The translations under genes were made by a program, and so were the position numbers. A stretch of DNA of 64,000 nt from Escherichia phage AnnaHegner_Bas87. Shown in pieces: positions 16,973-38,027 of the stretch (within the stretch, counting starts at the first letter, position 1; every line of letters starts with the position of its first letter). Location: the sequence record PQ850594.1. One strand, given 5' to 3'. The notes under the pieces are model-generated. The model worked only from the letters and a program-made list of their open reading frames with translations, was not told the origin of the DNA and made no database searches.

Positions 16973-17818
16973 TTATTCCCAAGTTTTATCTAACCATGAC
17001 CAATCAAAGAGGTCACCTTCAGCTTGTCCAACGAAGAGCAATCGAGCGTTTTCTAACATCTTATCTTCTGCTTCTTCCTCGAACCTCTTATAGTATTCCA
17101 TTCGTATAATATGATAAAGAGTCCACTTATCGAATACCTTCTCAATAAGTTTGATTGCAGCCTTGCTACCAATGCCTTTACGACGCATTACTAGATTGCC
17201 ACCCCACATCATTTCAACCTTCTCACCACATCCGGGAATGTTATCTGTGCTATCCCCGATCAGCATCTGGTAGAAGAAGTTCTGCCATGCTACTTCCTCT
17301 GGTACATAGTGGGGAGGTACTTCTTTCTGTCTCTCCCCGCAAGCCCAACGGTAATGCCATCCGGGGGTGATTAACAAATCTTTATCACGGGTGCAAATGA
17401 TAGTGTTCTTATCACGTCTCTGTCTTTCAGCTAAGGCATCATCTGCCTCTCTCCCAAAAACTTCAACGAATTCATAATTCTCTTTAATGTAATCACTGAC
17501 ATTTTGCCAGTGGTGAGGTCTTTCTCCCGGTGGTCGATTAGCTTTATAACCTTGCTGCTTAGCAATATCAAACCGAAAATTACCACCTTCGCTGAAGTAA
17601 AAGATTGTTTTCTCGCAACCAGACCTTGCAATGATTACATCTATTTTATGTTGAAGTCGTTCAATCAAGAATCCATAATCAACTGGAACACGACCTGTGT
17701 CTAGAAAAGGATGCTCTTGTGTAAGAGCACCGACTTCATATCGCAGAACATCTGCATCCACAATTGCTACTTCAGGATAGATTACATCAGACATAGAGAC
17801 CTCTCCGTGTCCCTTCAA
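16973..17818 (-). CDS. 5'-3' exonuclease / flap endonuclease (T7 gp6-like)
   Basis: IVDADVL, READDALA, GDSTDNIPG and GIGSKAA motifs of the FEN/5'-nuclease family. Confidence 0.8.
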   Translation of the reverse strand: MKGHGEVSMSDVIYPEVAIVDADVLRYEVGALTQEHPFLDTGRVPVDYGFLIERLQHKIDVIIARSGCEKTIFYFSEGGNFRFDIAKQQGYKANRPPGERPHHWQNVSDYIKENYEFVEVFGREADDALAERQRRDKNTIICTRDKDLLITPGWHYRWACGERQKEVPPHYVPEEVAWQNFFYQMLIGDSTDNIPGCGEKVEMMWGGNLVMRRKGIGSKAAIKLIEKVFDKWTLYHIIRMEYYKRFEEEAEDKMLENARLLFVGQAEGDLFDWSWLDKTWE

Positions 17819-22976: not shown

Positions 22977-23152
22977 CTTGATAAGACTCTCCCCCAATCC
23001 TTGATGTAACAGCGACCGTCAACCCACTTGGTCTCTGATTTAAACTCTTTTGAGATTCGAGTCTCGCAATCTTCTTTACTGTAATCTCCAAGAGCATCCA
23101 TCGCCCAAAGAAACAGAGCAATTACAATAGACCAGATTAGAAACTTCTTCAT
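22973..23152 (-). CDS. small secreted protein (sub-60 aa, not in ORF track)
   Basis: ATG overlapping the stop of the HAD gene; MKKFLIWSIVIALFLWAMDALG signal-like N-terminus; 59 aa. Confidence 0.35.
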   Translation of the reverse strand: MKKFLIWSIVIALFLWAMDALGDYSKEDCETRISKEFKSETKWVDGRCYIKDWGRVLSR

Positions 23153-23541
23153 CGTATCACCAGAGGCTCTTCAGAGTATACAGGAGAGGCTATTTCTACC
23201 GGAGGTGCTGCTCTAAGGTCATTAAGCCTTACGCCCTTCAGCATACCATCTAGGTGGTCCATTTTAGGGATACCTACAGGGAAGTCATCAATCCAAACAT
23301 CCACAAAGAAACCCAAGCTCTGAGTGACGGAATCCTTCTGAACACCGTTGCAAAAGATAACAGGAATATCTAGACTTGCTGCATCTGCTAGAAGCTCCTC
23401 ATTTGAATACCCATTGGGTTGAGCAAAACGATAGGTGACAATACGTACGTCATGTCCACGAGATTTCATAAGACCTACAATGTGGGTCCACATCTCTTTG
23501 TCCACTGTAAAAGTATCATCATAATCTAAACCAATATTCAT
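23149..23541 (-). CDS. HAD-superfamily phosphatase-like protein
   Basis: N-terminal GLDYDDT (DxDxT) and later VWIDD acidic motif. Confidence 0.5.
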   Translation of the reverse strand: MNIGLDYDDTFTVDKEMWTHIVGLMKSRGHDVRIVTYRFAQPNGYSNEELLADAASLDIPVIFCNGVQKDSVTQSLGFFVDVWIDDFPVGIPKMDHLDGMLKGVRLNDLRAAPPVEIASPVYSEEPLVIR

Positions 23542-23556
23542 ATTAGCCTCTTAGAC

Positions 23557-23580
23557 AAGAAAAGCCACCCGAAGGTAGCT
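23557..23580 (-). terminator. rho-independent terminator (minus strand)
   Basis: AGCTACC-TTCG-GGTGGCT hairpin with G-U wobble on the minus strand, then TTTTCTT. Confidence 0.55.
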
Positions 23581-23822
23581 TATTTATTCTGTGTTTCCAG
23601 TTCGCTGATACGAACTTTCAAACCATTGATTTCAGCCTGAGCGGCTTCTAGCTTAATTAGAGCTTCTTCAGCGTCAGCTTCTGTTTGAAGAACCGCAGTA
23701 GTTAGTTCATACAAAGCCTGACGTAGTGAATCTTTGCCCATAGAATGAATCTGTGCAACAAAGAATTGCTTACCTTCAGTTGTTTCTAGAGTCTCTTTCA
23801 ATTCTTTAGATGTTAAAGTCAT
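23580..23822 (-). CDS. small coiled-coil protein
   Basis: AAGGGAG RBS; heptad-like Ala/Glu/Leu composition. Confidence 0.4.
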   Translation of the reverse strand: MTLTSKELKETLETTEGKQFFVAQIHSMGKDSLRQALYELTTAVLQTEADAEEALIKLEAAQAEINGLKVRISELETQNK

Positions 23823-23824
23823 TA

Positions 23825-23992
23825 TTACTCCCTTTCATAAATTTTGAGAACTGTACCACCATCTGCTTTAATCTGAGCAGCGACTTCATCGCGTTCTTCA
23901 TCAGAATAAACCAGTTGGTTGTGAAATTTTCCTGTAGCATCTTGGAAATATACATTCCATTTTGGAGCAGGTTTACGAATCAAATCCATCAT
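23825..23992 (-). CDS. hypothetical small protein (sub-60 aa, not in ORF track)
   Basis: GAGGAG RBS then ATGATG; 55 aa ORF ending 3 nt before the next start. Confidence 0.35.
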   Translation of the reverse strand: MMDLIRKPAPKWNVYFQDATGKFHNQLVYSDEERDEVAAQIKADGGTVLKIYERE

Positions 23993-24180
23993 TGATCTTT
24001 CTCCTCTCGTTCAACCCATGTACGGAAAAGCTCCCCATACACTTTGGCATCATCAAAACGTCCTTCTTCCTGTGCGAGTTTTTGTTGCTTCAAGCACCAT
24101 TCAGAACTTTTTACTTCTTCCACTTCCTTGTCTCCTTAAAAAGAACTAATCAATAAGACTAGTTCATTTCGTAATACGAT

Positions 24181-24372
24181 TCAGCTCTTCCACGGGAGGT
24201 TGATGGTTAAATTCTTAATGGAGAAATCTTTATCAGGAAACTCTTCCATTAACTCAGCCGCTTCTTGAATAGCTTTTCTTTCTGTGTTATAGATGCAGAA
24301 ATGTCCATTACAGCAAACAATTGCATCTTTTGCTCCCGTAATGGCCCATGTTTCATGTACATGTCTAGTCAT
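24181..24372 (-). CDS. hypothetical small Cys-containing protein
   Basis: ORF only; CCNGHFCIYN. Confidence 0.35.
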   Translation of the reverse strand: MTRHVHETWAITGAKDAIVCCNGHFCIYNTERKAIQEAAELMEEFPDKDFSIKNLTINLPWKS

Positions 24373-24389
24373 TATTCCTCCACTACAAA

Positions 24390-26237
24390 TTAGTGAGTGT
24401 GATTCCAGTTTAACCCAATCTTACAGTCAGATGCCAGAGGGCATTCCATTTTGAGATACTCACCTGCTTTACGAACACACTCTTCAGTGAGGGTACGAAG
24501 TTTGTTAACATCGTCACGATGTACAGTGAACTGGCCTTCATCATGCATGTCAATAACCTTCGCACAACGAACACCATCACGCTCAATCCATTTATTAAGG
24601 AATAGCATTGCATACTTCATAACAATCGCCCCAGCGCTCTGTAAGAGAGTATTTAAGGCTTTATGAACCATAACCTTTCCAGTTGCATCTCTTCTCATTG
24701 TAATACGACGTCCATCCACACCGTAGATGTATCCACTTTGTGCTTTCTCTGTCATACGTTCAATAAGAATTGCAATACAAGGATTCTCTGCTAAGAATCT
24801 TGCCCTCATGACAGCTCCTTCATCAGAGCCACCGCCTACGATGCTTCCTAACTTAGCGTCACCAGCTCCGTAGTTGAATGCGTAGATAAATGTTTTAGCA
24901 TTATCACGAGTAGGAAGGCCAGCAAGTTTTTGGTTATGTGAGTGAATATCTCCTTCTAAAAGAATATCTCTGTACATAACAGCAGAAGCTAGACCGCGTT
25001 CAGCTTCTCGTTTCTTAGCCGGGTTGTTTTCTCGCTCTGCTTCAGCGAGCATCTCACGACACTCTTTAATAAGGTAGTGAGCTAGCATCCTCAGCTCAAG
25101 ACCAGAGCCATCGTAACCTAAGAAGATTTCACGACCAGCAGGAACATAGAACTTATAGGCACCTACAGGTTTGTCTTTCTTGCCCGGTTTTCCCACTTCG
25201 TAGATAGTGTTAGTACCCTTTCGTACGTAACACCCATCAGGGATATGGTTGGTAATGGTGAAAGGATGGTTATGACTATCGTCTGAGGAATAGTCAGATT
25301 GAAAAAGACTGCGGCACTCGTGACCAAACAAACCGCGAGAAGGAATATTAACAACAATGCGATGTTTAAAACGAAATGTCGGAGTAGCGCAGCTATTAGC
25401 TTCGGCGGACAACTTACCATCTTTACGTTCCTTGTCGATAAGCCCGCTAATCAAACCTAGCCTGTGAGCCGCTACAACGCGTCTCTTAAGCAAACTTCCT
25501 ACACCCCCTAGCTCACCCCCAAGCCCTTCTTCAAGAGTCTCCTCAAGGTTTGTAGGGGCTGTAGGCCACTTGTTTGATGTAGCCAAAGCTTTTTTGATTT
25601 CATCAAAGGTTACAGGCTTCTTCCTATTAGGGTTAAGACCTAAACCGCTGACATAGGCTTTCATATAATTGACAGTGTGATAACGGAAGTGCTTATCCAA
25701 AAACCTTCGGATATCAGCATCTATCATCTCTGCTGTCTGTTTCTCTTTAGCGTTACCTCGAATCCAAGCAGAATACCATGCAGAGTATGTACCATACTTC
25801 TTCATAGCTTTACGAATTTCAAAAGTATTCCAAGGTTTCTTAGAATAATTCCACTCTGGAGGTATAAAACCTTCATCCATCAAGGCTTCTTTAATACGTG
25901 CATCTTTTGATGGGTCAAAATCTACATACTCAACGCAAGTAAACGCCCCACCGATATCTTCTCTTTTAAGACCAACCCTATCGCAATAGAGCTGAGGCCA
26001 CTTCTGTAAAGCACCTGACTTCTTAAAAGGCTTAGCATAAGTTGAACCATCCACCCGCATTTTAGGGAGGAGAGGAATCAGTTCTTTATCAATATTGACA
26101 ATAATCTCTTTGAGAAGGTGAACAAACCACCGAGCGTTTCTTCTGTTGAAGTTGACTCCATGCTTCGCTTGTTTTGAGATTATATCAGCGACTGTCATCT
26201 CCGTTATGAAAGGTAACTTATCAGGGTTATCCATCAC
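24390..26237 (-). CDS. DNA polymerase, family A, polymerase domain only (T7 gp5-like)
   Basis: DGSGLELRMLAHY (motif A), RDNAKTFIYAFNYGAG (motif B), VIDMHDEGQF (motif C); no exonuclease domain in this ORF. Confidence 0.85.
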   Translation of the reverse strand: MMDNPDKLPFITEMTVADIISKQAKHGVNFNRRNARWFVHLLKEIIVNIDKELIPLLPKMRVDGSTYAKPFKKSGALQKWPQLYCDRVGLKREDIGGAFTCVEYVDFDPSKDARIKEALMDEGFIPPEWNYSKKPWNTFEIRKAMKKYGTYSAWYSAWIRGNAKEKQTAEMIDADIRRFLDKHFRYHTVNYMKAYVSGLGLNPNRKKPVTFDEIKKALATSNKWPTAPTNLEETLEEGLGGELGGVGSLLKRRVVAAHRLGLISGLIDKERKDGKLSAEANSCATPTFRFKHRIVVNIPSRGLFGHECRSLFQSDYSSDDSHNHPFTITNHIPDGCYVRKGTNTIYEVGKPGKKDKPVGAYKFYVPAGREIFLGYDGSGLELRMLAHYLIKECREMLAEAERENNPAKKREAERGLASAVMYRDILLEGDIHSHNQKLAGLPTRDNAKTFIYAFNYGAGDAKLGSIVGGGSDEGAVMRARFLAENPCIAILIERMTEKAQSGYIYGVDGRRITMRRDATGKVMVHKALNTLLQSAGAIVMKYAMLFLNKWIERDGVRCAKVIDMHDEGQFTVHRDDVNKLRTLTEECVRKAGEYLKMECPLASDCKIGLNWNHTH

Positions 26238-26250
26238 CCACTCCTTATAG

Positions 26251-26604
26251 TTATTGGTATATTAAATCTGTGAATGCTTGGTTGTCTTCAACAATATCTA
26301 AAGCTTCATATGAATCAGCCAATTCATCCACATAAAAGACTGCTGGAATATCTTCTGCTCGTTGTCTACGAGCTTCTCTCCGTTCGTTGCTGTTTCTCTG
26401 AACCTGTGCAAGTTTCATACCCCACACCTGCTCATATAACTCTGGATACTTGTCACTAACCACTACATAGTTTCGAGCTGGTTGGTTTCTATTAATCTTC
26501 GCTGTCAACTCAATAAACTGGCGAAACTCTTGAATAGAGAGGTTGTCATGAATATTATCCCACTTGAGAACGCAGTGACGTTCTAGGCGTTGAGGTACTG
26601 GCAT
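26251..26604 (-). CDS. hypothetical protein
   Basis: ORF only. Confidence 0.4.
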   Translation of the reverse strand: MPVPQRLERHCVLKWDNIHDNLSIQEFRQFIELTAKINRNQPARNYVVVSDKYPELYEQVWGMKLAQVQRNSNERREARRQRAEDIPAVFYVDELADSYEALDIVEDNQAFTDLIYQ

Positions 26605-26607
26605 AAC

Positions 26608-26877
26608 TTACTCCACTGTAGGGAATGGTTTTAGGTTGTTCATGGCTGTACGAACATCAGCACAGACTTCAGGGTCACGATAAGAGAGGAATTTACCATC
26701 CTTACCACGAATCATTACATTAGTCCGTGCTGTTTTATTAGGCAATAAAGAAATCCCTCCAATCAGGTGATTGGTAGGGTGTTGTCCTTGATTAACCTTG
26801 TAGTCATGAGTCTGAGCGTCACCATTAAAGAGATGATCACGAATTTGGATTAAGCTGATCTTCATATTATGCACCAA
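26608..26877 (-). CDS. small protein, tandem paralog A
   Basis: shares KTARTNVMIRGKDGKF...NLKPFP with the adjacent gene. Confidence 0.4.
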   Translation of the reverse strand: MVHNMKISLIQIRDHLFNGDAQTHDYKVNQGQHPTNHLIGGISLLPNKTARTNVMIRGKDGKFLSYRDPEVCADVRTAMNNLKPFPTVE

Positions 26878-27118
26878 AGTTAGGGAAAGGTTTCAGATTT
26901 TCAATAGACTTAGCAATACGCTTAGGAACAATCTTATCACGGAAGGAGATGAACTTGCCATCAGGGCCACGAAGGGCTACATTAGTACGAGCTGTTGTTT
27001 TGTTAAACTGAATCATCTCAACAGAGCTTGTAACATTTTCTACAGGAAAAGTATAACTCTCAGTTGTGTTCAGAGAAGGAAGGAAATCAGTTACAGTGAT
27101 ATAAGTTACTTTAGACAT
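26867..27118 (-). CDS. small protein, tandem paralog B
   Basis: TTARTNVALRGPDGKF...NLKPFP. Confidence 0.4.
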   Translation of the reverse strand: MSKVTYITVTDFLPSLNTTESYTFPVENVTSSVEMIQFNKTTARTNVALRGPDGKFISFRDKIVPKRIAKSIENLKPFPNFGA

Positions 27119-27140
27119 ATTTATTACCTTAGGTTACATA

Positions 27141-27170
27141 AAAGAAAAGGCCACCCGAAATGGGTAGCCT
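27141..27170 (-). terminator. rho-independent terminator (minus strand)
   Basis: AGGCTACCC-loop-GGGTGGCCT hairpin (G-U wobble on minus strand) then TTTCTTTT. Confidence 0.55.
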
Positions 27171-27174
27171 TATA

Positions 27175-27492
27175 TTAACTTGAGCTTAAAGCTCCTTTTC
27201 GACCGCCTGCTGATTTTCCAGCACGATCTCCACTTTTGCCGCCGTTCGAGCGATTTCGAGAGACTGATTCAACACGTAAGTTACTTGACGCATTAGAACC
27301 TCCCGACTTGATTGATCGTTTGTGTCCAACATCTTTACCTCGGACAGCAGCTTTTCCATCGCGCTTTTCAACGATGCGACGTGCACGGTGGCGCTGAGCA
27401 TCTCCGCTCTTGCTACCAACGCCGGTCTCACCCCTTGCGATTGCAGTTCTTCGTTCTTGTGCATAATCACGTTTCGCCTTATCGGTCATCAC
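27175..27492 (-). CDS. basic Gly/Lys/Arg-rich protein, KGG-repeat-like
   Basis: strong TAAGGAG RBS and TAATGTATA motif upstream; preferred over overlapping alternative-frame ORF 27186-27470. Confidence 0.45.
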   Translation of the reverse strand: MMTDKAKRDYAQERRTAIARGETGVGSKSGDAQRHRARRIVEKRDGKAAVRGKDVGHKRSIKSGGSNASSNLRVESVSRNRSNGGKSGDRAGKSAGGRKGALSSS

Positions 27493-27524
27493 AACTCCTT
27501 AACATATCAGTGTACACTAAGGAG

Positions 27525-27533
27525 TATACATTA
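27525..27533 (-). promoter_or_regulatory. TAATGTATA promoter-like element (minus strand)
   Basis: exact motif in the 44 nt gap between the PhoH stop and the 27492 start. Confidence 0.5.
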
Positions 27534-27536
27534 TGT

Positions 27537-28274
27537 TTATGATTTTTCAGATTCCATTGCTTTAACAATAGCTTTACAGAAACCTGAACGAACAATATCG
27601 TCTGATTCACCATCTACTAGAGCGGCAAATTCAAATAACTGGTGACGGTAGATGAAATCAGTAGCCCAATCCAGACCACTCTCACCACGCATATCATGCT
27701 GATTAGTATCTCCCATGCAGAACATCTGAGAGGTTTCACCAAGACGTGTCATGATTGAATATGCTTCATCAGGAGTAGTATTCTGGAACTCATCAACAAT
27801 CACGATGGCGTCATTGAATGATCGACCACGCAGATATTCCAGAGGTACGAACTCAATGTTACCATTACCTACTTGACATTCGTAGAAACCTTTACCGTAG
27901 CGCTGAGTAATAACATCAACGATTGGCATCAGGTATGGTTCAAACTTCTCACGAAGCCCACCGGGAAGTAGTCCAAGACTGTTACCCATACCAACAGCAG
28001 GTCGGCTTAGGATAATCTTCTCAATCTTCCCACTCTTCAGAGCATCGATCACTGTAGAAGTGATTACGAATGTCTTACCACAGCCAGCAGGAGCATCTGT
28101 GAATACAACCTGTTTGGTTTTAATTGCATCAAGCAGCTCACTCTGGAATTGGTTCTGAGGTACTACCGGCTTAGCAAGAACTACTTCTTCAAATTCCCGC
28201 TTTCCTTTCTTGGTGACGAGAGCTTCACGACGTAATTCTCTCCGTGATGCTTTCCGAGATTCTCTACGACTCAT
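27537..28274 (-). CDS. phoH: PhoH-like ATPase
   Basis: Walker A APAGCGKTF and overall PhoH-like layout. Confidence 0.8.
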   Translation of the reverse strand: MSRRESRKASRRELRREALVTKKGKREFEEVVLAKPVVPQNQFQSELLDAIKTKQVVFTDAPAGCGKTFVITSTVIDALKSGKIEKIILSRPAVGMGNSLGLLPGGLREKFEPYLMPIVDVITQRYGKGFYECQVGNGNIEFVPLEYLRGRSFNDAIVIVDEFQNTTPDEAYSIMTRLGETSQMFCMGDTNQHDMRGESGLDWATDFIYRHQLFEFAALVDGESDDIVRSGFCKAIVKAMESEKS

Positions 28275-28452
28275 TTCCTACCTCCGTGTTCTTCATATAA
28301 GAAGCTACAGGATTTACACTCTGAGCAATGGATACCTATAACCTTAATTTCGACAAACTTCTTATTCTTCCCTTTAGTCGGGGAGCCTTTGGCAAGCTCC
28401 CGTATTACTTTCGAGTCCAAATGGAGAAGAGTTGATTCACATTTAAAACATT

Positions 28453-28773
28453 TCAGATTGATTTGTCCTTATGTAAACGGTATACTTCAGTAGCCATACA
28501 AGCTATACGCTCGTCATGAGGAAGATGCATACCAGTGGAGCCATTCCATCCATTGAACTCTGAATCGAAGAATCCAATAGGCTCAGGATACATCTCTTGC
28601 AAGGTGGTTAAGTCATCAGCCACTTGTTGCCACTTATCGTCAGACCAGATTGGGTCATCCAACCAATAATACAAATAGGAGTGGATAAGCATCTGTGTTC
28701 TGTGTCGTTTAATCACTTCAGCAGGACTGATTTCATTTCCGTTACCAGTCCTAAATGTATTATTGTTGATCAT
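28453..28773 (-). CDS. small protein resembling the N-terminal Ia domain of NAD-dependent DNA ligase
   Basis: IHSYLYYWLDDPIWSDDKWQQVADDL...YPE parallels the LigA H.YLY...D.PEI.D..YD..L pattern; no adenylation domain present. Confidence 0.35.
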   Translation of the reverse strand: MINNNTFRTGNGNEISPAEVIKRHRTQMLIHSYLYYWLDDPIWSDDKWQQVADDLTTLQEMYPEPIGFFDSEFNGWNGSTGMHLPHDERIACMATEVYRLHKDKSI

Positions 28774-29249
28774 TCCAAAACCCTTTCTTCTAAATCATAA
28801 AAGATTTGATTTGTCCCATTATTCTCAACAAGCACTGTTCCATTATCTAACAGGGTAGCAACTTGGGAATAAGGAATGTTCTTTAACATCAGAGAGTTGG
28901 TGGTTGGCTTCTTTTTGAAGTAAGCGACAGGCTCAACGTAGAAGGAAATCCCACGACTCCCTTTGATTGGAGTACTCGAAGACAATACCCAAATTGTTTC
29001 TGGATTGCCTACTCCTTTTTCAACACCGACCTCAACAAGAGAGTCAGCAGCGAAACCTACAGGACGCCTAGAAGAACCAAGCAACCGAATATATCCCGGT
29101 AGTTTTGACATATTAGACCAACTGCCAGTGTTTTCATTAAACATAGGTCGTGTATTTCCATATGCCCAAACCTGATTATCACAATCGCGGGCTATGTATT
29201 TGGTCCACTCAGGAACATCATATTCTCTTCCTTCAAAAATAGCTTTCAT
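28770..29249 (-). CDS. hypothetical protein
   Basis: ORF only. Confidence 0.4.
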   Translation of the reverse strand: MKAIFEGREYDVPEWTKYIARDCDNQVWAYGNTRPMFNENTGSWSNMSKLPGYIRLLGSSRRPVGFAADSLVEVGVEKGVGNPETIWVLSSSTPIKGSRGISFYVEPVAYFKKKPTTNSLMLKNIPYSQVATLLDNGTVLVENNGTNQIFYDLEERVLE

Positions 29250-29558
29250 TTAGATAACCTTGTGCTTGTAGGTGTTAGGTTTGTAGTAATGCAACCAGTT
29301 TATGTGTTGCTTCTGTTCAAGGTAGTGCCTGCAATCATGACAAAAAGCATGACCCAAACCTGTTTCCTCGTTCAGCTTGAAATTGATAAGAAGCTTCTTC
29401 TTTTGACAGAAGCTACATACTTTAGTGGGCTTCACGTAGTGCGTCCCATGAGATTGGGAAAAGTTTACGAAGCTCTTCATCAACAGTTGATGCGAATAAA
29501 CGCACTTCGTATTGAGCATGGTCTGACAGACGTTGACGACACAACTCTGACCAACCAA
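29250..29558 (-). CDS. Cys-rich putative zinc-binding protein
   Basis: CSFCQKKK...CHDCRH; start uncertain because it overlaps the ThyX-like 3' end. Confidence 0.3.
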   Translation of the reverse strand: MVGQSCVVNVCQTMLNTKCVYSHQLLMKSFVNFSQSHGTHYVKPTKVCSFCQKKKLLINFKLNEETGLGHAFCHDCRHYLEQKQHINWLHYYKPNTYKHKVI

Positions 29559-30072
29559 ATAAAGACCCTGTCCACACCCACTCAGTGATCATGCCCTGAG
29601 GCAATACGAATCGAGCTTGCTCTGGAGCGATAAACTTAATCAATTCATCATACGACTCAAGAGCTGTTTCGTATGCCCGATTAATCAGAACTAGTGCAGA
29701 GTTTTGTGCTCCTGTGGTGAGGAGATTCCCCGCACCTGCATGGAGGTCCGAAGGTCTTTCAAAAATCTCTTTAGGGATGAAGAGTTCAACTGCTCCATCT
29801 TTATACCGCCGGGACATTTCGTTCCATGAGAATCCAACTTGGTGTTTATTGAGTTGTCTAGCAATTGCAATGGGAGCCTTACACCGAAAGGTGATTTGAG
29901 GGTGTCGAAAAGGAGTCACATGACGTTCCCGAGCTAAGAATTTAATCAACCGCTCGTCACGTTCGTTCAGATCACCATCTCGTGTCACACCAAAGGAAAC
30001 CCTTGCTGCATTGACCACAGATTTGTCGGAACCCATGTGCTCTACCAGTGTTGCTTTTAAAAAATCAGACAT
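29422..30072 (-). CDS. thyX: ThyX-family (flavin-dependent thymidylate synthase-like) protein with divergent signature
   Basis: overall ThyX pattern but the canonical RHR-X7-8-S motif reads KHQVGFSWNEMSRRY. Confidence 0.55.
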   Translation of the reverse strand: MSDFLKATLVEHMGSDKSVVNAARVSFGVTRDGDLNERDERLIKFLARERHVTPFRHPQITFRCKAPIAIARQLNKHQVGFSWNEMSRRYKDGAVELFIPKEIFERPSDLHAGAGNLLTTGAQNSALVLINRAYETALESYDELIKFIAPEQARFVLPQGMITEWVWTGSLFGWSELCRQRLSDHAQYEVRLFASTVDEELRKLFPISWDALREAH

Positions 30073-30532
30073 ACTTCAACTTCTCCTTGTTGTAAACTTC
30101 TTCTGCCTCTTCGCAAGAAGCAAAAGTCCCTAAATGTATATTCTTACCTTTGACGCCAATGATGGCTCGGTATCTATCACCAGAAGTTGTCTTACGAAGA
30201 TACACACCCCTAGGAAGATTTCCTATCTTGCTATCAACATCATACTGCTTTCTGTTATGGCAGTTAGTGGATGGATTTACATCTCTTAGGTTATCAATCG
30301 AATCATTAAGTTTGTTCTGGTCGATGTGGTCAATTTCAAACTCAGGAAACTTTCCATGAACAAAGAACCAAGCAAGGCGACAAGCTCTGTAGCTTTTCCC
30401 TTCATACTCAATATAACGATAACCTAGAGAAGATACATATCCAGCTTGATTCCCTTTAACCCTTCGACCTTTTGTGTTCTTCCAGAAGAAGGCTCCAGTC
30501 TTAGGGTTATATTCCAAGTCATCTTGTATCAT
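30065..30532 (-). CDS. HNH homing endonuclease (HNH_3-type with AP2-like domain)
   Basis: YRACRLAW...IDHIDQNKLNDSIDNLR and AP2-like RYRAIIGVKGKNIHLGTF..EEAEEVY; stop overlaps the ThyX-like start. Confidence 0.7.
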   Translation of the reverse strand: MIQDDLEYNPKTGAFFWKNTKGRRVKGNQAGYVSSLGYRYIEYEGKSYRACRLAWFFVHGKFPEFEIDHIDQNKLNDSIDNLRDVNPSTNCHNRKQYDVDSKIGNLPRGVYLRKTTSGDRYRAIIGVKGKNIHLGTFASCEEAEEVYNKEKLKYV

Positions 30533-30539
30533 CTCTTCC

Positions 30540-30752
30540 TTAATAATAAACTTTTGGTACTACTACAATGAAACCCGCTGCTGTCATATATGCACGGTGG
30601 ATTGAAATCTTCGAATCACGACCCATCTTCTTGAGGGCACGTTTAGTGCATCGTGCAGTTTTACGAGTAGCACACGTGTTAACCCTTGGATACTCCATCT
30701 CTGGATATTCAGAAACAACAGCCCAAAAATACACATCTTTTCCTTGAGTCAT
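30540..30752 (-). CDS. small protein, KVYY family member 1
   Basis: W.VV...TR..AR..KRALK....ISI.....Y ending KVYY; four paralogs in the window. Confidence 0.4.
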   Translation of the reverse strand: MTQGKDVYFWAVVSEYPEMEYPRVNTCATRKTARCTKRALKKMGRDSKISIHRAYMTAAGFIVVVPKVYY

Positions 30753-30767
30753 AATAGCACCTATTCT

Positions 30768-30983
30768 TTAATAGTAAATCTTTTTATAAATCAGGTTGCT
30801 TCCACTTTCTGTTTCAATCCCTTTCTGGATTGTAATCTTAGAAGCACCGGTATTAGCAATTTTTAAAGCTCGTTTAAAGCGGCGAGCCTCTCTCCGTGTT
30901 GTGTATGAGGAGAAGCTAGGGATTGTACTATCAAAATTAAACCACTTAACTACCCAAAAAGTAATCCAAGGTTTCTTTTCCAT
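30768..30983 (-). CDS. small protein, KVYY family member 2
   Basis: TRREARRFKRALK...ITIQK ending KIYY. Confidence 0.4.
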   Translation of the reverse strand: MEKKPWITFWVVKWFNFDSTIPSFSSYTTRREARRFKRALKIANTGASKITIQKGIETESGSNLIYKKIYY

Positions 30984-30984
30984 A

Positions 30985-31260
30985 TTAAATACCTTTCAGA
31001 GCTGTATCTAAAAACGCACGGAGGTTTGATTCAGTTTGCATACCGGACAAGCTGTAGTGAGCACCACTGTTCATGTTAGGAACCACAAAGGCTGGGATAC
31101 TGCGAACACCATATTCAATGGCTCGCTCTCGACCATCACCTTCAGAGATATTTACTTCTTCAACTTCTACGTTGTAATCAGCTACAACTTTCTTAAACAC
31201 AGGAGCCATAGCTGCACATGGAGCACAGGAATTACTATAAAACTTAATTACTTTACTCAT
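30985..31260 (-). CDS. thioredoxin/glutaredoxin-fold protein
   Basis: CAPC active-site motif; start moved to internal Met (MSKVIKF) with AAGGAA RBS. Confidence 0.6.
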   Translation of the reverse strand: MSKVIKFYSNSCAPCAAMAPVFKKVVADYNVEVEEVNISEGDGRERAIEYGVRSIPAFVVPNMNSGAHYSLSGMQTESNLRAFLDTALKGI

Positions 31261-31450
31261 TTTATTCCTTGTTAATAAACAGATTGATATGACGCTGGGT
31301 AGCAGGAACAACAATAAAAGATTTATACTGACCTTTTGCTAAGTCATGAGCAATCTTCTTTGTCTGACCAAGACCCATCACACAGCCACTAACGATAATG
31401 GCATGTGCTTGTAATTCTTCAGGTAGGTTTAGTTTCACTCTTTGGATTCC

Positions 31451-31636
31451 TTATAGCATACAAAGAATAATAACAAGAGGTAGTGTTATAGCAAAATGTA
31501 CCAGAACAACACTACCTAGCTTGATAGCTTTAACATCCTCTTCTGCTGGGTTTTCTTTAATTGCTAAATTTCGAGCTTTATATATAACAGTACCAACTAT
31601 TAACGACCACACGGCCCACACAATCAGTGAAATCAT
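31451..31636 (-). CDS. small two-TM membrane protein (paralog pair)
   Basis: two hydrophobic helices around a KENP loop. Confidence 0.4.
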   Translation of the reverse strand: MISLIVWAVWSLIVGTVIYKARNLAIKENPAEEDVKAIKLGSVVLVHFAITLPLVIILCML

Positions 31637-31645
31637 ATCAAACCC

Positions 31646-31867
31646 TTATGCAGTCAACAGGTGGAGAAGGAAAGGAATGACAACAGAGAAAACTACCAGA
31701 GCAATGCTACCATGTTTAATAGGTTTGGCATCATTTGGATTTTCTTTAAGCATCTGCTTCTGAGCCAGATAAACGATACCACCAACAAGGATTGCCCATA
31801 CAGACCATACGATTGCTGAAAACATACTCATATCCTTATAAAGAAGTTCGCCCCACCTCTTGAACAA
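31646..31867 (-). CDS. small two-TM membrane protein (paralog pair)
   Basis: AIVWSVWAILVGGIVY...KENPND...ALVVFSVVIPFLL. Confidence 0.4.
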   Translation of the reverse strand: MFKRWGELLYKDMSMFSAIVWSVWAILVGGIVYLAQKQMLKENPNDAKPIKHGSIALVVFSVVIPFLLHLLTA

Positions 31868-31888
31868 AGAGACAGGGCGGAGGTTTGA

Positions 31889-32464
31889 TTAGTAAGACAC
31901 ATCACCACTGGAGTGGGACATGTTGCTCTTGACGAAGTAACAGAACTTGCCAAGACCTTCATTAATTTCTTGAAGCATACTCTGGTCCACTGGATAGGTG
32001 CACAAGTCTGAATCAAACTCATCCATCTTCTCAATGATACACATAAGAGTCATGCACATGTCGGAAAGCATACCGTCCATGTCGAGATCAGCGTTACCTT
32101 CTCGGAACCAAGCATGGCCTAAATAATTACTAGCAGTAGCATCCACTTTAACACAATGAAAGCGCATACGCTCTGCTATTCGGTCGCCTGCCTCACGAGC
32201 ATAATCTTCTAGTTCATCGAACATACCATGAACACCTTGGAAACCAGCTCCAGAGACGTTCCAGTGGTAGTTCTTTGCTTTGATGTGTAGAAGTTCAAGG
32301 TTAGCTTGCACACCACACAAGATGTGTTCTAAGCTGTTACCGCTAATCAGTTTATTCATTCCCTCAAGACGAGAGATAGAAGAGTCAGTAGTAGAGAATG
32401 GGTTGCTAGAACCCACTCGTGTTAGTTCTGGTAAGTCGAAGACATTATTATGCATTAGGTGCAT
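31889..32464 (-). CDS. Dps/ferritin-like protein
   Basis: YHWNVSGAGFQGVHGMFDELEDYAREAGDRIAERM matches the Dps ferroxidase-site signature. Confidence 0.6.
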   Translation of the reverse strand: MHLMHNNVFDLPELTRVGSSNPFSTTDSSISRLEGMNKLISGNSLEHILCGVQANLELLHIKAKNYHWNVSGAGFQGVHGMFDELEDYAREAGDRIAERMRFHCVKVDATASNYLGHAWFREGNADLDMDGMLSDMCMTLMCIIEKMDEFDSDLCTYPVDQSMLQEINEGLGKFCYFVKSNMSHSSGDVSY

Positions 32465-32795
32465 CCCCTTCTAAGTTAGTTGAATTAGCTACATTACGAG
32501 CAATGTTATCCATGACCTGCTGGGTAATAACAATGCAATTCTGTGGGTCTACAGACTTAGAACGCCCCATTTCAGGGTCATAAACCTTAACACGCTTGGC
32601 TGTTGAGCCAGTAACTTGCAACACTTTGAGAAGATAACCTTGGTTTCCAATAGACCATGCAACAACATCACGATTCTTGATATAACGACCAAGCATATCA
32701 CGATGATAGAACTGCTGCATAACTTTAGCTTTGCTAATCTCTTCAGATGGCGGGGCCACTTTACTCAAATCTAACATAACTCTCTCCTGTTTCAT
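32448..32795 (-). CDS. hypothetical protein
   Basis: AGGAGAG RBS; AAATGTATA promoter-like variant upstream. Confidence 0.4.
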   Translation of the reverse strand: MKQERVMLDLSKVAPPSEEISKAKVMQQFYHRDMLGRYIKNRDVVAWSIGNQGYLLKVLQVTGSTAKRVKVYDPEMGRSKSVDPQNCIVITQQVMDNIARNVANSTNLEGDAPNA

Positions 32796-32813
32796 ACAAT
32801 ATTCTTATACTGT

Positions 32814-32822
32814 ATATACATT
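32814..32822 (-). promoter_or_regulatory. promoter-like variant AAATGTATA (minus strand)
   Basis: one-mismatch variant of TAATGTATA about 20 nt upstream of the 32795 start. Confidence 0.3.
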
Positions 32823-32847
32823 TGAGAGTTATCATATCTACTACCAA

Positions 32848-33063
32848 CTAGTAATAAACCTTGCTGGATATGAATCCAGCACTGTTATGGATATTTTCAA
32901 TCCAACGATGAATCTCCACCTTTTCAGCGATTCCTAAAGCTTTTGTAGCTTTTATAGTTTTCTTAGCAAGACGAGCCTCTTGTCTTGTGTTGAATAATTG
33001 AATACAATCACCACCAAGAGCTTTGTTAGCCCATTTAGTACGAACTGCCCATAATTTATCCAT
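32848..33063 (-). CDS. small protein, KVYY family member 3
   Basis: NTRQEARLAKKTIK...VEIHR ending KVYY. Confidence 0.4.
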   Translation of the reverse strand: MDKLWAVRTKWANKALGGDCIQLFNTRQEARLAKKTIKATKALGIAEKVEIHRWIENIHNSAGFISSKVYY

Positions 33064-33275
33064 TAGTAATGTACCTTTCCGCTGATATAGAAACGACCTG
33101 ATTTAAAGTCTTGAGCTTTGTGGATAGTGATCTTATTAATTGTGCTTTCACAACTTAACAAGAACTTCTTATGAGCGCGAGCTTCTTGACGGGTATTCCT
33201 AATACCCATTGACTCTGTACCACTGCTCCAGTGAATACGAACTACCCAACGTCTTTTCATTGTTCCAAACTCCAT
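33063..33275 (-). CDS. small protein, KVYY family member 4
   Basis: NTRQEARAHKKFL...ITIHK ending KVHY. Confidence 0.4.
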   Translation of the reverse strand: MEFGTMKRRWVVRIHWSSGTESMGIRNTRQEARAHKKFLLSCESTINKITIHKAQDFKSGRFYISGKVHY

Positions 33276-33466
33276 TATCTGTCAACCAATTTAGGGACAA
33301 ACTGCATTACACAGACCTGACTACGAGGGAGATTTATTTCACAAGCGGCTCTTCTCGTCTCAATCTTAACGCTAGAATCTGGACCAACGTTAGATATAAA
33401 TACTCCCATAGCAAATGCCCCAACTACAAAACCAATAGCTAAGTAAGTAGCTTTTTCTTCTTTCAT
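33275..33466 (-). CDS. small membrane protein
   Basis: single hydrophobic helix LAIGFVVGAFAMGVFI. Confidence 0.35.
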   Translation of the reverse strand: MKEEKATYLAIGFVVGAFAMGVFISNVGPDSSVKIETRRAACEINLPRSQVCVMQFVPKLVDR

Positions 33467-33471
33467 CTTGG

Positions 33472-34005
33472 TTATACACCTTTAGATGCAACTACCCCAT
33501 TGCTGCCATTGTAACGACCCTTCACTGCATAGGAATCATCACCAGCGTGAGAGTGTTCAAACATAACCATCTGACCAACACGCATCCCAGCACGAACTCG
33601 TAAGCTGTGGTTGTGGGTAACGTTATGGAATTCAAAGGTCAGCTTACTGCTGTTAAACCCTGCATCAGCCCAACCAGCATGTAAGTGGTTCAAACCACAA
33701 CGAGCCATTGAGGAGCGAAGTACAAACAGACTTGAGATGTTATCTGGAAGGTTAAACTCTTCCATTGAGTGCGCTAAGAAGAATTGTCCCGGAGTGATGA
33801 CAATACCATCTTCAGGGATTTTCACCTCTTTCCACTTGAGGTTTTCTTTAGCATCAATGTCAACAATGCCGTCAGCCTGTTCTTCAACAAGGATAGTATC
33901 ACCAATACGGATATCCACACTAGCAGCGTTAACATATTTATGCTCCGCATCTAAAAAGCCATTATCAATAACACTGTGTAATTCTTGAGAACCTAAAAGA
34001 CTCAT
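33472..34005 (-). CDS. dcd: dCTP deaminase / dUTPase-superfamily enzyme
   Basis: HAGWADAGFNS...GMRVGQMV matches the dCTP deaminase G.iDpGf...pGmri.Q pattern. Confidence 0.65.
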   Translation of the reverse strand: MSLLGSQELHSVIDNGFLDAEHKYVNAASVDIRIGDTILVEEQADGIVDIDAKENLKWKEVKIPEDGIVITPGQFFLAHSMEEFNLPDNISSLFVLRSSMARCGLNHLHAGWADAGFNSSKLTFEFHNVTHNHSLRVRAGMRVGQMVMFEHSHAGDDSYAVKGRYNGSNGVVASKGV

Positions 34006-35450
34006 GAGTTTCTGTTTCCTTGTACAGATGATGCCAAATTGTTAATCATGTTACGAGCTGTTTCACGAGTCAGCGTAACACCTGCTAAGTTACTATCAAG
34101 TTCACCAACTAATTCACGAGCTGTTGCTCGGAGTTCTGCACCAAGTGTAGTGTTAGAATGAGCCAGACCATTACGACGACCGACAGGTCGAGGAGTATTG
34201 TTAGCATCATTAGCTAAAGATGCAAAACCAATACGAGCAGCTTCACGAGCGGCTATAGCTGCTACCCGATCTTCCGTAGGGGTTGGCAAATCACCAACTT
34301 CTACACGTTCTATATCACTAGAACGTAGACCCTGAACAACAGAGCTAACTGTTTCCCATGAACGACGGGAGCGCTGCAAATCACCCATAGATGGAGAAGA
34401 AGCAGGTCGAACAGTTACTCCACCTGTATCATGAGTGACGTGCCATGTACGAGTACCCATTCCAGAAGAACGGGCACTACCAAAACTACCAGTGAAAGTA
34501 TCACGAGGTGACTCTGTAGCAGGTGCTGCGAATCTTGTCTGTTGCCAAGAGTCACGTCTGTCAGTTCCCGGAGTCCAAGGCTGCGTAATTGCTTCAGCAC
34601 CTATAGTGGTTAATCCGCTAGACCATTCTGTCTGTAGATTAACTTCCTCGTCCAGATAACTACGACCCCTTTCCTGAGGAATGTTTAATATAGTTTCCAT
34701 CATCTTCAGGGTATAATGACGACGCTGATTCTGATATAAATTTACACCAGCCATAGGTCCAACTAAATCACTAATCAGGTGAACTTCTGGCTCACCGAAA
34801 GCTCCCATTGCAAGGTGCATGTATTCAGTAGAACTGCTATAAACTGCAACAGTTGCTTCAGGCCACTTCTTGTGAACATACTTCATTTCACGACTAGATA
34901 CCACAGGAATGTCACGAGTGTATGACATTGCAAACAAACCTTCGTTTGACACATACAGATTACCAAGAGTCATAAACCCTTGACAGATCATAGGAAAGCG
35001 ACGGCTTAAAGTATCCATATCCAAAGGTAGATTAATCATCATCTGGATTTTAACTTGATCAATCTCAATTTCCAGAATCTCTTGGAAAGTGAAAAGCGCT
35101 TCAGCATAGGTTGTCCCGTTAACAGGCTGAATTAGTCGAGATGTAACCTGAAGCCCCTTACTTTCTGTCCAAGATAAGAAGTTGTCAAGGAATAGTGCAG
35201 CATTACCTACGTTAGCAGGGCTGTTTTCTTGACGAGTGTTCCAACGAAGCCCTCCTTGAACTAGGAAGATATCAACATCATTCGGAGTTCTATTTTGAAA
35301 GAACGTATCACGGATAGCACCACCTGCAATAACAGGATAGATGCCATCAGGGACTACGTTATCTCTGATCAAATTACGAATCAGGTCAAGCCCTACACTG
35401 AGGGCTTCTCCTTCTTGAAGGTTCAATTCAGATAGTGGAATCTTAATCAT
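34002..35450 (-). CDS. Pol-beta-superfamily nucleotidyltransferase (CCA-adding/poly(A) polymerase-like head) with low-complexity C-terminal half
   Basis: PVIAGGAIRDTFF...PNDVDIFLV (GG.xRD plus DxD); C-terminal ~200 aa Ser/Arg/Thr/Gly-rich. Confidence 0.5.
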   Translation of the reverse strand: MIKIPLSELNLQEGEALSVGLDLIRNLIRDNVVPDGIYPVIAGGAIRDTFFQNRTPNDVDIFLVQGGLRWNTRQENSPANVGNAALFLDNFLSWTESKGLQVTSRLIQPVNGTTYAEALFTFQEILEIEIDQVKIQMMINLPLDMDTLSRRFPMICQGFMTLGNLYVSNEGLFAMSYTRDIPVVSSREMKYVHKKWPEATVAVYSSSTEYMHLAMGAFGEPEVHLISDLVGPMAGVNLYQNQRRHYTLKMMETILNIPQERGRSYLDEEVNLQTEWSSGLTTIGAEAITQPWTPGTDRRDSWQQTRFAAPATESPRDTFTGSFGSARSSGMGTRTWHVTHDTGGVTVRPASSPSMGDLQRSRRSWETVSSVVQGLRSSDIERVEVGDLPTPTEDRVAAIAAREAARIGFASLANDANNTPRPVGRRNGLAHSNTTLGAELRATARELVGELDSNLAGVTLTRETARNMINNLASSVQGNRNS

Positions 35451-35452
35451 TT

Positions 35453-36001
35453 CTACATTTTCCAGTTGAGAGATGGGGGATTCTTATAATCAAATCCAGC
35501 CATTTGGCAAAGACACATGTAAACCTTAACTGTCAAGTTAACGTCTTGTTCACAATACGTGAACATGTCTTCAGTGAAAGCATCCCATGCTTCTTCCTGT
35601 TCACCATAGTCACCCTTCAGCTCTCCCAGAAATTCGCCCCATTGCTTGAGGCCATGACCGCGAGGTCCGTGTCTAGGGTCGCCTTTGGGATATTCTGGAC
35701 TGTCACCAATACGGTCAGGCTTGAGGTATCGACTCAGGCACAGGGTATCAAAGACATTAAAACGAAAAGGTATCACATGAGAGTAGAATTTAAACAAAGC
35801 AGGAAGGTCAAAATCAATAATATTGTGACCTATTACTACATCAGCTTCTTTCAGTTTGTGTAGTGCTTCTTCAATTTGGTGAGGGCGATACCCCCACCGT
35901 TCTCCAGACAGTACATCAAATATCCATATACACCAGACATTCTGAATACCATCATAGAGGTTATCACCTTCAATATCAAACGCATACAGTTTCTTTACCA
36001 C
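35453..36001 (-). CDS. 3'-5' exonuclease, DnaQ-like (T7 gp5 N-terminal exonuclease homolog)
   Basis: FDIEGDN (Exo I), HNIIDFDLP (Exo II), YCEQDV (Exo III); collinear with the T7 DNA polymerase exonuclease domain. Confidence 0.75.
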
Positions 36002-37785
36002 GGACGTGCCTCCCCTTCTTGTGAAAGTAAGGAAGCTGCATCTTCTCCGTTGGTGACTGTAAACGGATTATCTTCATCAACTTCATGATCTTCTCGTTCC
36101 ACAAGACGACCTGTTTCGTTAATGTATTTGGTATAGCAAACCCCTGTCTGTCCATAGTTACGCTCTTTGAGCAGACGTATGATTGACAAGTTTTTACCTA
36201 ACCCATCCGCTTGTTTATTACGTTCGAAACCGATAATACATTGACACCAGCGCATTAATGAACGTGAGCCAGTAAACTGTACTTCTTTAACCTGACCACC
36301 TTCTTCGTGAGGGGCACCGCCCGCCGGAGCATTCAAGTGAGATAACACAAAAGCAGTGAAGTCTAATTCCTTACACATACCAGCAAGCTCTGAAGCAATC
36401 TTACTGATTTCTGTATTCACTTCGGATGGAGTTAAGTGAGATACCAATGCAGTGATGTTATCAAGAATGATAAATTTACACTGATTCTCAACTACCCAAA
36501 AGCGAATACACTGCTTAATGTCTTCCCATTCGTTCTGCCCAAAGTTGTCATACAAGAAAAACTTATCAGCGTATCGAAGTGCTTCATCTCGTAGCTGGCT
36601 TTCTTCGTACTCAACATCTGGTCGGTGGAAAGGTACAGATGCTGACTTACCTGCAATGTTCTTAACAGACATGCCTACCTTCTCTTCCAAGAAGAAGCCA
36701 CCACCATTAAAACCATGCTCAAGGCAAAGCCATGCTACCAGTTCGTGTGCGATTAAGGTTTTACCTGAACCAACACCACCGCCGATTGCAACCATCTCTC
36801 CCCAACGAATACCGAAAGTCATGTCGTTAAGAGTTTTCCACGGATAAGGGATACCCCACTCCGCTTTCTTCAGAGCATCTTCAAGGCAATCAAAAACTGT
36901 AACAGCGCCGGCAGGAGATTCCCGCTTAGCTGAATATTTCAGATTGTTGAAAAGCTCTTGACCTCTCCCTGCAAGTAACATGTCGTTTGCATCTTTGATT
37001 TCCTTTTCTTGTCCGTTATAAGTGAACGTACCTTTTGGAATTCTTGCAAACTTGACATGTGGGTACAGAGAACGACCTTTAGTCAATGCAATCTCTCCTG
37101 CATCATCATTGTCCATGCAGAGTACAATCTCCTCGAAACCATTAATAAAATCACGATTTCTTGACAACACAGAAGAGATTGAACCTGCACCGAACGGAAG
37201 AGAGACACAAGCAGGTTTGATATTAGTTGCGTTTGTGAACGCAGTAAGTACGTGGAATCCAGACATACAAGAGAGTGGGTCTTCGAAGATGAAGAGCTTC
37301 TTATTGTAAACATCGCCACGTTGTGCTTGAGCCATACCAAATAAGTCGGCTTCTTTCACATTACCTACATAATAGAACTTCTTGCTGTCTAGAAGTTTTA
37401 CTTCATATCCAACAATATTCCCATCACGTTCACGAGGGAAGAAGTAGCTGTCAGGAGTTTGACCATCTGTTTGGCTTAAACCGATACGGCATCCATAACG
37501 TTCAGATACAGCTTTAGGAATTAAGCGACGAGTCAACTCTCCCTGAGGAAGCTCTAAGCAATCGTCTAAGACTTCTCGGAGTTCTTCAGGGGACAGCTCT
37601 TTCTTTTCATTAGGAGTGGGCGTCGTTCCTTTCTCGAAGATTTCATACGCACCACATCTGTTACATGAACCCCACTCCTCACCGGACTCTTCATTTCGGA
37701 AGAGAATCATGTGATTGCGGGTCTTATCACGACCATGAGAGATACACTCTTTACAGCCTGTGTCTCCCAAAATGATCTTTGACAT
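35995..37785 (-). CDS. primase-helicase (T7 gp4-like)
   Basis: N-terminal zinc ribbon CKEC...CNRC, TOPRIM region, DnaB-type Walker [10 protein letters not shown]. Confidence 0.85.
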
Positions 37786-37820
37786 GCTCTATCCTCCTTG
37801 GAATTCCTTGAGCAATCTTC

Positions 37821-38027
37821 TTAATAAAACGATCGTATTTCTTCCCACACGTCATCTTGCAAGTTTCGGAAACCCTGCAAGGTTTGCTTTGTTCTGTGAA
37901 TAAATTCTTCAGAGTGCTTATCAGGTGTGAGCATACTGACAAACTTTTCATAGCGATTAATCTTCCACCGCATCTTTAAGTAGTCAGATTCAAGCTTTCT
38001 TAATTTCTGCCTGTCAGTTACTGTCAT
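37821..38027 (-). CDS. hypothetical small protein
   Basis: start moved to internal Met to limit overlap with the upstream gene. Confidence 0.3.
   Translation of the reverse strand: MTVTDRQKLRKLESDYLKMRWKINRYEKFVSMLTPDKHSEEFIHRTKQTLQGFRNLQDDVWEEIRSFY

Follow-up and report, generated by a model that had tools for sequence, protein, structure and literature searches.

The DNA analysed here is a 64,000 nt stretch of Escherichia phage AnnaHegner_Bas87 (sequence record PQ850594.1), referred to below as the window. On its minus strand, which is the coding strand from ~16 kb to 62 kb of the window, lie two open reading frames (ORFs) that correspond to the two parts of a T7 gp5-type DNA polymerase: (i) ORF 35453..36001, a predicted standalone 3'-5' proofreading exonuclease subunit of the DEDDy type (182 aa, GTG start; homologous to T7 gp5 residues 1 to ~201), and (ii) ORF 24390..26234, a predicted family A DNA polymerase that lacks an exonuclease domain (614 aa from an ATG at 26234, or 615 aa from a GTG at 26237; homologous to T7 gp5 residues ~202 to 704). 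The stop of the exonuclease gene and the start of the polymerase gene are separated by 9,218 bp, in agreement with the ~9 kb given in an earlier note on this DNA. That note placed about 15 genes between the two halves; we count 24 ORFs, all on the same strand. The source is a phiEco32-like coliphage of the Gordonclarkvirinae. A megablast search with window positions 24000–38000 matches 98 phage records, nearly all of them Escherichia phages of this subfamily; ECBP2, vB_EcoP-101114UKE3, IME267, EK010 and other Suseptimavirus show 93–96% identity over 90–97% of the query. The window is closer to Suseptimavirus phages such as vB_EcoP-101114UKE3 (hereafter UKE3), EK010 and ECBP2 than to phiEco32.

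The exonuclease ORF passes the Pfam PF01612 cut-off only narrowly (24.2 bits; cut-off 23.6), but it gives strong hits to two PHROG families that carry the name 'DNA polymerase exonuclease subunit', with E-values of 2.6e-67 (phrog_38876) and 3.1e-37 (phrog_403). T7 gp5 is its top sequence match among solved structures in the PDB. The AlphaFold2 (AF2) model of the protein has a predicted local distance difference test (pLDDT) score of 92, and its top 27 Foldseek matches are all T7 gp5. The motifs Exo I (DxE), Exo II (Nx2-3[FY]D) and Exo III (Yx3D) are all present: D9/E11 correspond to T7 D5/E7, the D65 of N60/D65 to T7 D65, and Y149/D153 to the T7 Y/D174 pair. All six of these residues are invariant in 36/36 homologues spanning 35–96% identity, D63 is kept in at least 90% of them, and F170, P175 and P176 in the C-terminal tail are almost invariant. 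Phage EK010 encodes an identical protein (100% identity). Pfam and PHROG matches, alignment and fold all agree with the earlier note's reading of this ORF as carrying three Exo motifs and being collinear with the exonuclease domain of T7 gp5. By these sequence criteria, the 182-aa protein is predicted to be a complete DEDDy (DnaQ-like) 3'-5' exonuclease domain with intact catalytic residues.

The polymerase ORF gives a Pfam match to PF00476 with an E-value of 3.7e-24 that covers residues 363–612 only, and domain scans of the ORF detect no exonuclease domain. Motif A contains D375/E380 (T7 D475/E480), motif B contains R443/K447/Y451/Y455 (T7 R518/K522/Y526/Y530), with Tyr at the dideoxy-discrimination position, and motif C reads H564-D565-E566, in which D565/E566 correspond to T7 D654/E655. 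The C-terminal His of T7 gp5 (H704) is kept as H614. All three motifs and this His are invariant in the 94 polymerase homologues compared. By phmmer against the PDB, T7 gp5 is the best match (E 6.5e-33; Klenow, E 7.7e-10); by Foldseek, using an AF2 model of pLDDT 93, T7 gp5 again comes first (E 1e-26; Bst, E 4e-17). Sequence and predicted fold thus both assign the enzyme to the T7-like subfamily of family A, and not to Pol I/Klenow. The earlier description of an ORF with motifs A, B and C and no exonuclease domain is borne out, as are its coordinates (24390–26237), save that the ATG at 26234 (614 aa) is the more likely start, because relatives are annotated in this way and an AAGGAG lies upstream.

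The two ORFs are parts of what is a single gene in T7. They match consecutive stretches of phrog_17, a profile of fused polymerases (exonuclease 670–826, polymerase 837–1233). To locate the break, split pairs were joined into 'virtual fusions' and aligned with T7 gp5 and a pair of fused polymerases from Vibrio phages; the exonuclease ends opposite T7 residue ~201 in the window, in phiEco32 and in Aeromonas phage APT65, and at ~207 in the Bruynoghevirus ZCPS1. This alignment places the break at the exonuclease/polymerase inter-domain linker of T7 gp5. On the polymerase side, N-terminal residues 12–26, which flank the old linker, are highly conserved among the 94 homologues. Searches with both halves (tblastn) found no paralogue or fused polymerase in the 64 kb window, and no fused polymerase-exonuclease gene is annotated in the closest complete genome (UKE3, 75.7 kb), where the annotation has a single polymerase (614 aa), a single 182-aa 'DNA polymerase' (the exonuclease) and a single 5'-3' exonuclease. 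A full-length gene elsewhere, which would have spoken against the split, is thus absent from the window and from that annotation. Between the window and phiEco32, both halves show a proportion of nonsynonymous differences (pN) of 0.10–0.125 and a proportion of synonymous differences (pS) of 0.64–0.79, at which synonymous sites are saturated. Because they are conserved and under purifying selection, both halves are predicted to be functional genes.

The exonuclease gene sits directly behind a T7 gp4-like primase/helicase gene (35995..37785, minus strand; phrog_239, E 3.9e-175; DnaB_C and Toprim_2 domains). Its GTG start, preceded by the Shine-Dalgarno sequence GGGGAGG, overlaps the primase/helicase stop by 7 nt (GTGGTAA, 35995–36001), and the exonuclease is therefore probably coupled translationally to the primase/helicase, rather than to the polymerase. 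The order of helicase then exonuclease is that of T7 gene 4 then gene 5, and is ancestral. Gene-order comparison with related phages, which the earlier note proposed, gives a consistent picture: a helicase gene followed directly by the exonuclease gene, with the polymerase gene further along the same strand, is found in phiEco32, UKE3, ECBP2, SU7, APT65, ZCPS1 and the basal metagenomic contig L092. Phage PJNS034, with an exonuclease 46% identical to that of the window, was left out of this comparison since its exonuclease gene lies at the end of the record.

The arrangement extends well beyond these phages. In a search of 5.8 billion proteins, 36/36 exonuclease homologues are standalone proteins of 163–208 aa (35–96% identity). 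A comparison of exonuclease/polymerase layout at 80 IMG/VR loci shows that all 11 exonuclease ORFs at 42% identity or above (loci L012–L022) are standalone, with a primase/helicase match upstream that is directly adjacent in most. Where a polymerase was found at these standalone loci, it lies 7.8–9.5 kb further on; in the remainder, none was found in the available sequence, which reaches up to 10 kb downstream. Nearly all of the more distant loci encode compact fused polymerases of 574–592 aa. Approached from the polymerase side, homologues down to ~36% identity lack an exonuclease domain, while the nearest fused homologues (597–637 aa) cover only 60–66% of the query because they do not have its insertions. 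A neighbour-joining tree built from 100 polymerases (429 columns) groups 88/88 exonuclease-less polymerases into one clade, the sister of which consists of compact fused polymerases; the window polymerase lies inside the exonuclease-less clade, and shares its thumb and pre-motif A insertions. In all split genomes in which both halves were looked for, they occur together. The distance between them varies widely: 0.9 kb, with three small genes, in L092 (helicase, a 197-aa exonuclease 35% identical to that of the window, then polymerase), 1.4 kb in ZCPS1, 8.0 kb in phiEco32, 9.2 kb in the window and 9.6 kb in APT65.

The split is real, but it was already known: phiEco32, the LUZ24 group and all Kuravirus-like phages have been annotated and described in print as carrying it. 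In the phiEco32 RefSeq record, gp74 is named 'DNA polymerase exonuclease subunit' with the note 'contains 3'-5' exonuclease domain', and gp53 is named 'DNA polymerase' with the note 'lacks 5'-3' and 3'-5' exonuclease domains'. According to a 2012 paper (PMC3517423), every LUZ24-group phage encodes its polymerase and its proofreading exonuclease in separate genes; the paper links these phages to phiEco32, for which, as cited there, the split was reported in 2008. The same split has been described in phages 7-11, Privateer, Vp_R1 and BUCT695 (PMC9965538), and a 2023 survey of family A polymerases analysed exonuclease/polymerase fission in S-SBP1-like cyanophages (PMC10201439). Our literature searches found no biochemical study of a split phiEco32-like or LUZ24-like enzyme. 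What is added here, for this split, is the count of 24 ORFs in the gap, the single clade of exonuclease-less polymerases, the probable growth of the gap, and the exclusion of an intein or intron (see below).

Among known systems, phiEco32 is the closest match. Its genes run in the same order—primase/helicase, exonuclease, nucleotidyltransferase, dCTP deaminase, Dps-like protein, thioredoxin, ThyX, PhoH, polymerase—and its exonuclease and polymerase are 80% and 87% identical to those of the window, respectively; it differs only in details, namely a shorter gap and the lack of the HNH gene and small ORF found in the window. The LUZ24-like Pseudomonas phages (Bruynoghevirus: LUZ24, PaP3, tf and ZCPS1) likewise have a standalone exonuclease after the primase/helicase and an exonuclease-less polymerase downstream, and name the halves 'DNA polymerase part I / part II'. 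They are split at the same linker, and their polymerases share the insertions and belong to the same clade. However, their gap holds only four small genes (~1.4 kb), their polymerase is 545 aa long, and their exonuclease is ~34% identical to that of the window. T7 gp5 has all its exonuclease and polymerase catalytic residues in common with the window halves, among them Y526 (Y451 in the window) and the His at the C-terminus, and it too follows a gp4-like primase/helicase, but it is a single chain of 704 aa.

Two further comparisons concern split replicases outside this lineage. In S-SBP1-like cyanophages, a T7-type polymerase is likewise split at the domain boundary, and its thioredoxin-binding element is shortened (PMC10201439), as is the segment at that position in the window. 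An AlphaFold2 model of the S-SBP1 exonuclease-polymerase complex is reported to superpose on an unsplit polymerase (Czernecki et al. 2023, PMC10201439). In these cyanophages, however, the genes are adjacent and overlapping, and the fission is a recent 1-nt frameshift; in the window the split is old, clade-wide and spans 9.2 kb. The S-SBP1-like fission is independent of the phiEco32-like one, and a recent event of that type, with adjacent and overlapping genes, is ruled out for the window by the 9,218 bp and 24 ORFs between the halves. In the E. coli Pol III core, the alpha polymerase and the DEDD-type 3'-5' proofreader epsilon/DnaQ are separate polypeptides held in a complex; the polymerase is of family C, and epsilon binds its PHP domain via a C-terminal peptide. 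The parallel with Pol III is a functional analogy only, given that the window polymerase belongs to family A and that there is no homology in the mode of interaction.

The gap between the halves (26251..35450, minus strand) was characterized by Pfam and PHROG scans. Products identified are a nucleotidyltransferase, a dCTP deaminase, a Dps-like protein, a thioredoxin-like protein, ThyX, a standalone NAD-ligase Ia domain and PhoH; the rest of the gap consists of an HNH endonuclease and small ORFs. The five genes that had been named earlier as lying between the halves (ThyX, HNH, Dps-like, dCTP deaminase and nucleotidyltransferase) are thus all there. By tblastn, 22/22 of the UKE3 genes between polymerase and exonuclease (gp054–gp075) are present in the window. 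The HNH homing-endonuclease gene and an accompanying 70-aa ORF (30065..30752, minus strand; PF13392, phrog_99) lie between ThyX and the gene matching UKE3 gp064. Because this pair is absent from the closest relative, UKE3 (95.7% identical), we regard it as a probable mobile insertion in the gap; it looks like a free-standing homing endonuclease beside ThyX.

One gap product may bear on the polymerase itself. The gene at 30988..31260 (minus strand; PF00085, E 4.2e-12) encodes a phage thioredoxin-like protein of 91 aa with a CAPC active site. In the Privateer paper (PMC7881722), a phage thioredoxin-like protein is proposed as a polymerase partner, and on the strength of that literature hypothesis the 91-aa protein is a candidate processivity partner of the window polymerase. 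T7 gp5, by comparison, uses E. coli thioredoxin, whereas the window phage encodes a thioredoxin-like protein of its own; and the polymerase segment at the T7 thioredoxin-binding position (T7 residues 262–338) is 55 aa long here vs 77 aa in T7, and is modelled with a pLDDT above 90.

Several other features of the gap were recorded. A consensus scan returns two terminator-like hairpins, both of them pattern matches only: a hairpin with a T-run at 27147..27171 (minus strand), between exonuclease and polymerase, and a second at 31849–31879. The SU7 record has a terminator annotated at the place equivalent to the former. A scan for sigma-70 promoters gave 18 sites, fewer than in shuffled controls (mean 30), and it therefore says nothing about transcription units. 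The hairpin at 27147–27171, a strong one, comes after the gene for a very basic, low-complexity protein (105 aa, rich in Arg, Lys, Ser and Gly; 27175–27492, minus strand) for which there is no family match. The protein encoded at 28453–28773 (minus strand, 106 aa) consists of the NAD+-binding Ia domain of an NAD-dependent DNA ligase alone (PF22745, E 1e-33); it is named 'DNA ligase' in relatives, yet is without adenylation and OB domains. Directly downstream of the exonuclease gene, and conserved in the group, is the gene for the 'nucleotidyltransferase' (482 aa, 34002–35450, minus strand; phrog_12715), which has a long C-terminal half rich in Ser, Arg and Gly and gives no Pfam match.

The polymerase gene of the window is uninterrupted and has no intron-like insertion, but this is not true of the lineage as a whole. 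In ECBP2 (positions 2170–2786 of its locus) and SU7, a 607-bp insertion carrying an HNH ORF lies between polymerase residues H564 and D565, within motif C. Searched against the group I intron model RF00028, this insertion yields a match over the full length that stays below threshold (27.2 bits, E 1e-4). The equivalent site in the window, at polymerase codons 564/565 (~24540), is free of any insertion. Many metagenomic polymerase ORFs end inside motif B (RDNAKTF|IYAF), at positions equivalent to window polymerase residues ~449–454, and the polymerase ORF of Vp_R1 ends at motif C (~564). These patterns point to two recurrent sites of intron/homing-endonuclease insertion in this polymerase lineage, one in motif B and one in motif C.

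A third activity may be encoded apart from both halves. ORF 16973..17818 (minus strand) is a candidate 5'-3' exonuclease, divergent and FEN-like, with sub-threshold Pfam scores for 5_3_exonuc_N and 5_3_exonuc (27.5 bits vs a cut-off of 34.3, and 22.4 vs 40). Its UKE3 homologue is annotated 'exonuclease', and the YF01 paper (PMC9965538) describes the 5'-3' exonuclease as encoded separately. If this candidate is real, the three Pol I-type activities would be distributed over separate genes; in T7, gp6 is likewise separate.

The simplest reading that fits the gene order, the tree and the break site is that the gene was split once, long ago, at the linker, and that other genes then accumulated in the break. 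An ancestral T7 gp5-type family A gene would have been divided between its exonuclease and polymerase domains. The exonuclease half would have kept the ancestral place directly after the gp4-like primase/helicase, to which it would be translationally coupled, while the polymerase half, with a ribosome-binding site and start codon of its own, would have been pushed downstream by incoming genes. The gap may then have expanded from 0.9–1.4 kb, as in basal and LUZ24-like relatives, to the 8–9.6 kb seen here and in nearer relatives, with a nucleotide-metabolism module filling the break. For the present-day proteins, we infer that the 182-aa and 614-aa chains associate non-covalently as a gp5-like heterodimer, in which the small subunit would proofread in trans. 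Taken as a whole, this reading—an old linker fission of a T7 gp5-type enzyme whose halves still come together—is in our view the probable one. It has to contend with several points: the neighbour-joining tree is without support values; a partner exonuclease gene was looked for individually at only a minority of the metagenomic exonuclease-less polymerases; the halves may not be expressed equally, because two terminator-like hairpins lie between their genes; and the polymerase differs from T7 gp5 in three places (thumb 138 aa vs 51, pre-motif A 79 vs 36, post-motif A 51 vs 26), with insertions that could alter or replace a T7-type exonuclease/polymerase interface.

The insertions and the hairpins also bear on an alternative account of the small protein. 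The exonuclease might proofread on its own or be tethered by other means, or it might be a DNase of general 3'-5' activity, in each case without docking in the manner of T7; it could be recruited by the helicase, or act in recombination or repair, with the polymerase stabilised by its own insertions. The ~170 extra polymerase residues, which form three ordered insertions absent from T7 and from the compact fused relatives, would suit this idea, as would the terminator-like sites between the genes and the overlap of the exonuclease start with the primase/helicase stop, an adjacency seen in every split relative examined. The adjacency is, however, little informative, because it is the ancestral T7 gene order. 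Moreover, the C-terminal tail of the exonuclease (F170, P175, P176) and polymerase residues 12–26 are highly conserved on the two sides of the old linker, as expected if the old domain interface has been kept, and the published S-SBP1 split-polymerase model keeps that interface (PMC10201439). On balance we think a free-standing exonuclease unlikely. Of the two options that the earlier note had offered, assembly in trans is likely, and a separate proofreader less so. The proposal that the 182-aa ORF is a decaying remnant, in a phage that goes without proofreading or borrows a host exonuclease, could appeal to the Pfam score barely over threshold; but the six catalytic residues are invariant down to 35% identity, the fold prediction is confident, purifying selection is strong and no genome examined has a disrupted copy of the ORF. 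A remnant or pseudogene is rejected on this conservation, and we give the proposal very little credence. Still harder to credit is a joining of the halves after transcription or translation, whether by a split intein, an intron or RNA trans-splicing, or programmed recoding. Polymerase genes of the lineage are often interrupted, as in the motif C insertion of ECBP2 and SU7 and the ORFs ending in motif B, but those insertions hit catalytic motifs, whereas the break lies at a domain linker. Aligned over their full lengths, the two proteins correspond to T7 residues 1 to ~201 and ~202 to 704, with no unaligned junction residues and therefore no room for intein halves, which rules out an intein or trans-splicing. 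Both halves are equipped with a Shine-Dalgarno sequence and a start codon of their own. The gap is made up of 24 conserved genes, each of which can be translated independently; together with the lack of any Rfam family at gathering score in window positions 23000–38000, these genes rule out an intron in the gap.

Why the old linker fission should have lasted is a separate matter. One idea, which we consider unlikely, is that it persists since it allows separate control of proofreading and synthesis: with the exonuclease gene coupled to the primase/helicase and the polymerase gene behind two terminator-like sites in a different part of the module, the exonuclease:polymerase ratio could shift during infection, and the polymerase insertions, perhaps with the phage thioredoxin, could replace the covalent link by a new docking and processivity surface. 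If this were true, replication fidelity or exonucleolytic idling could change in the course of infection via that ratio.

For phage biology, the window represents one more member of a documented arrangement, and brings no new biology of its own. The arrangement bears on how family A polymerases are built. These enzymes almost always combine proofreading and synthesis in one chain, and are reported to need the exonuclease domain for stability (PMC10201439). A large, old phage clade in which the two halves are encoded up to ~9.6 kb apart would, if the halves do assemble, constitute a natural two-subunit family A replicase.

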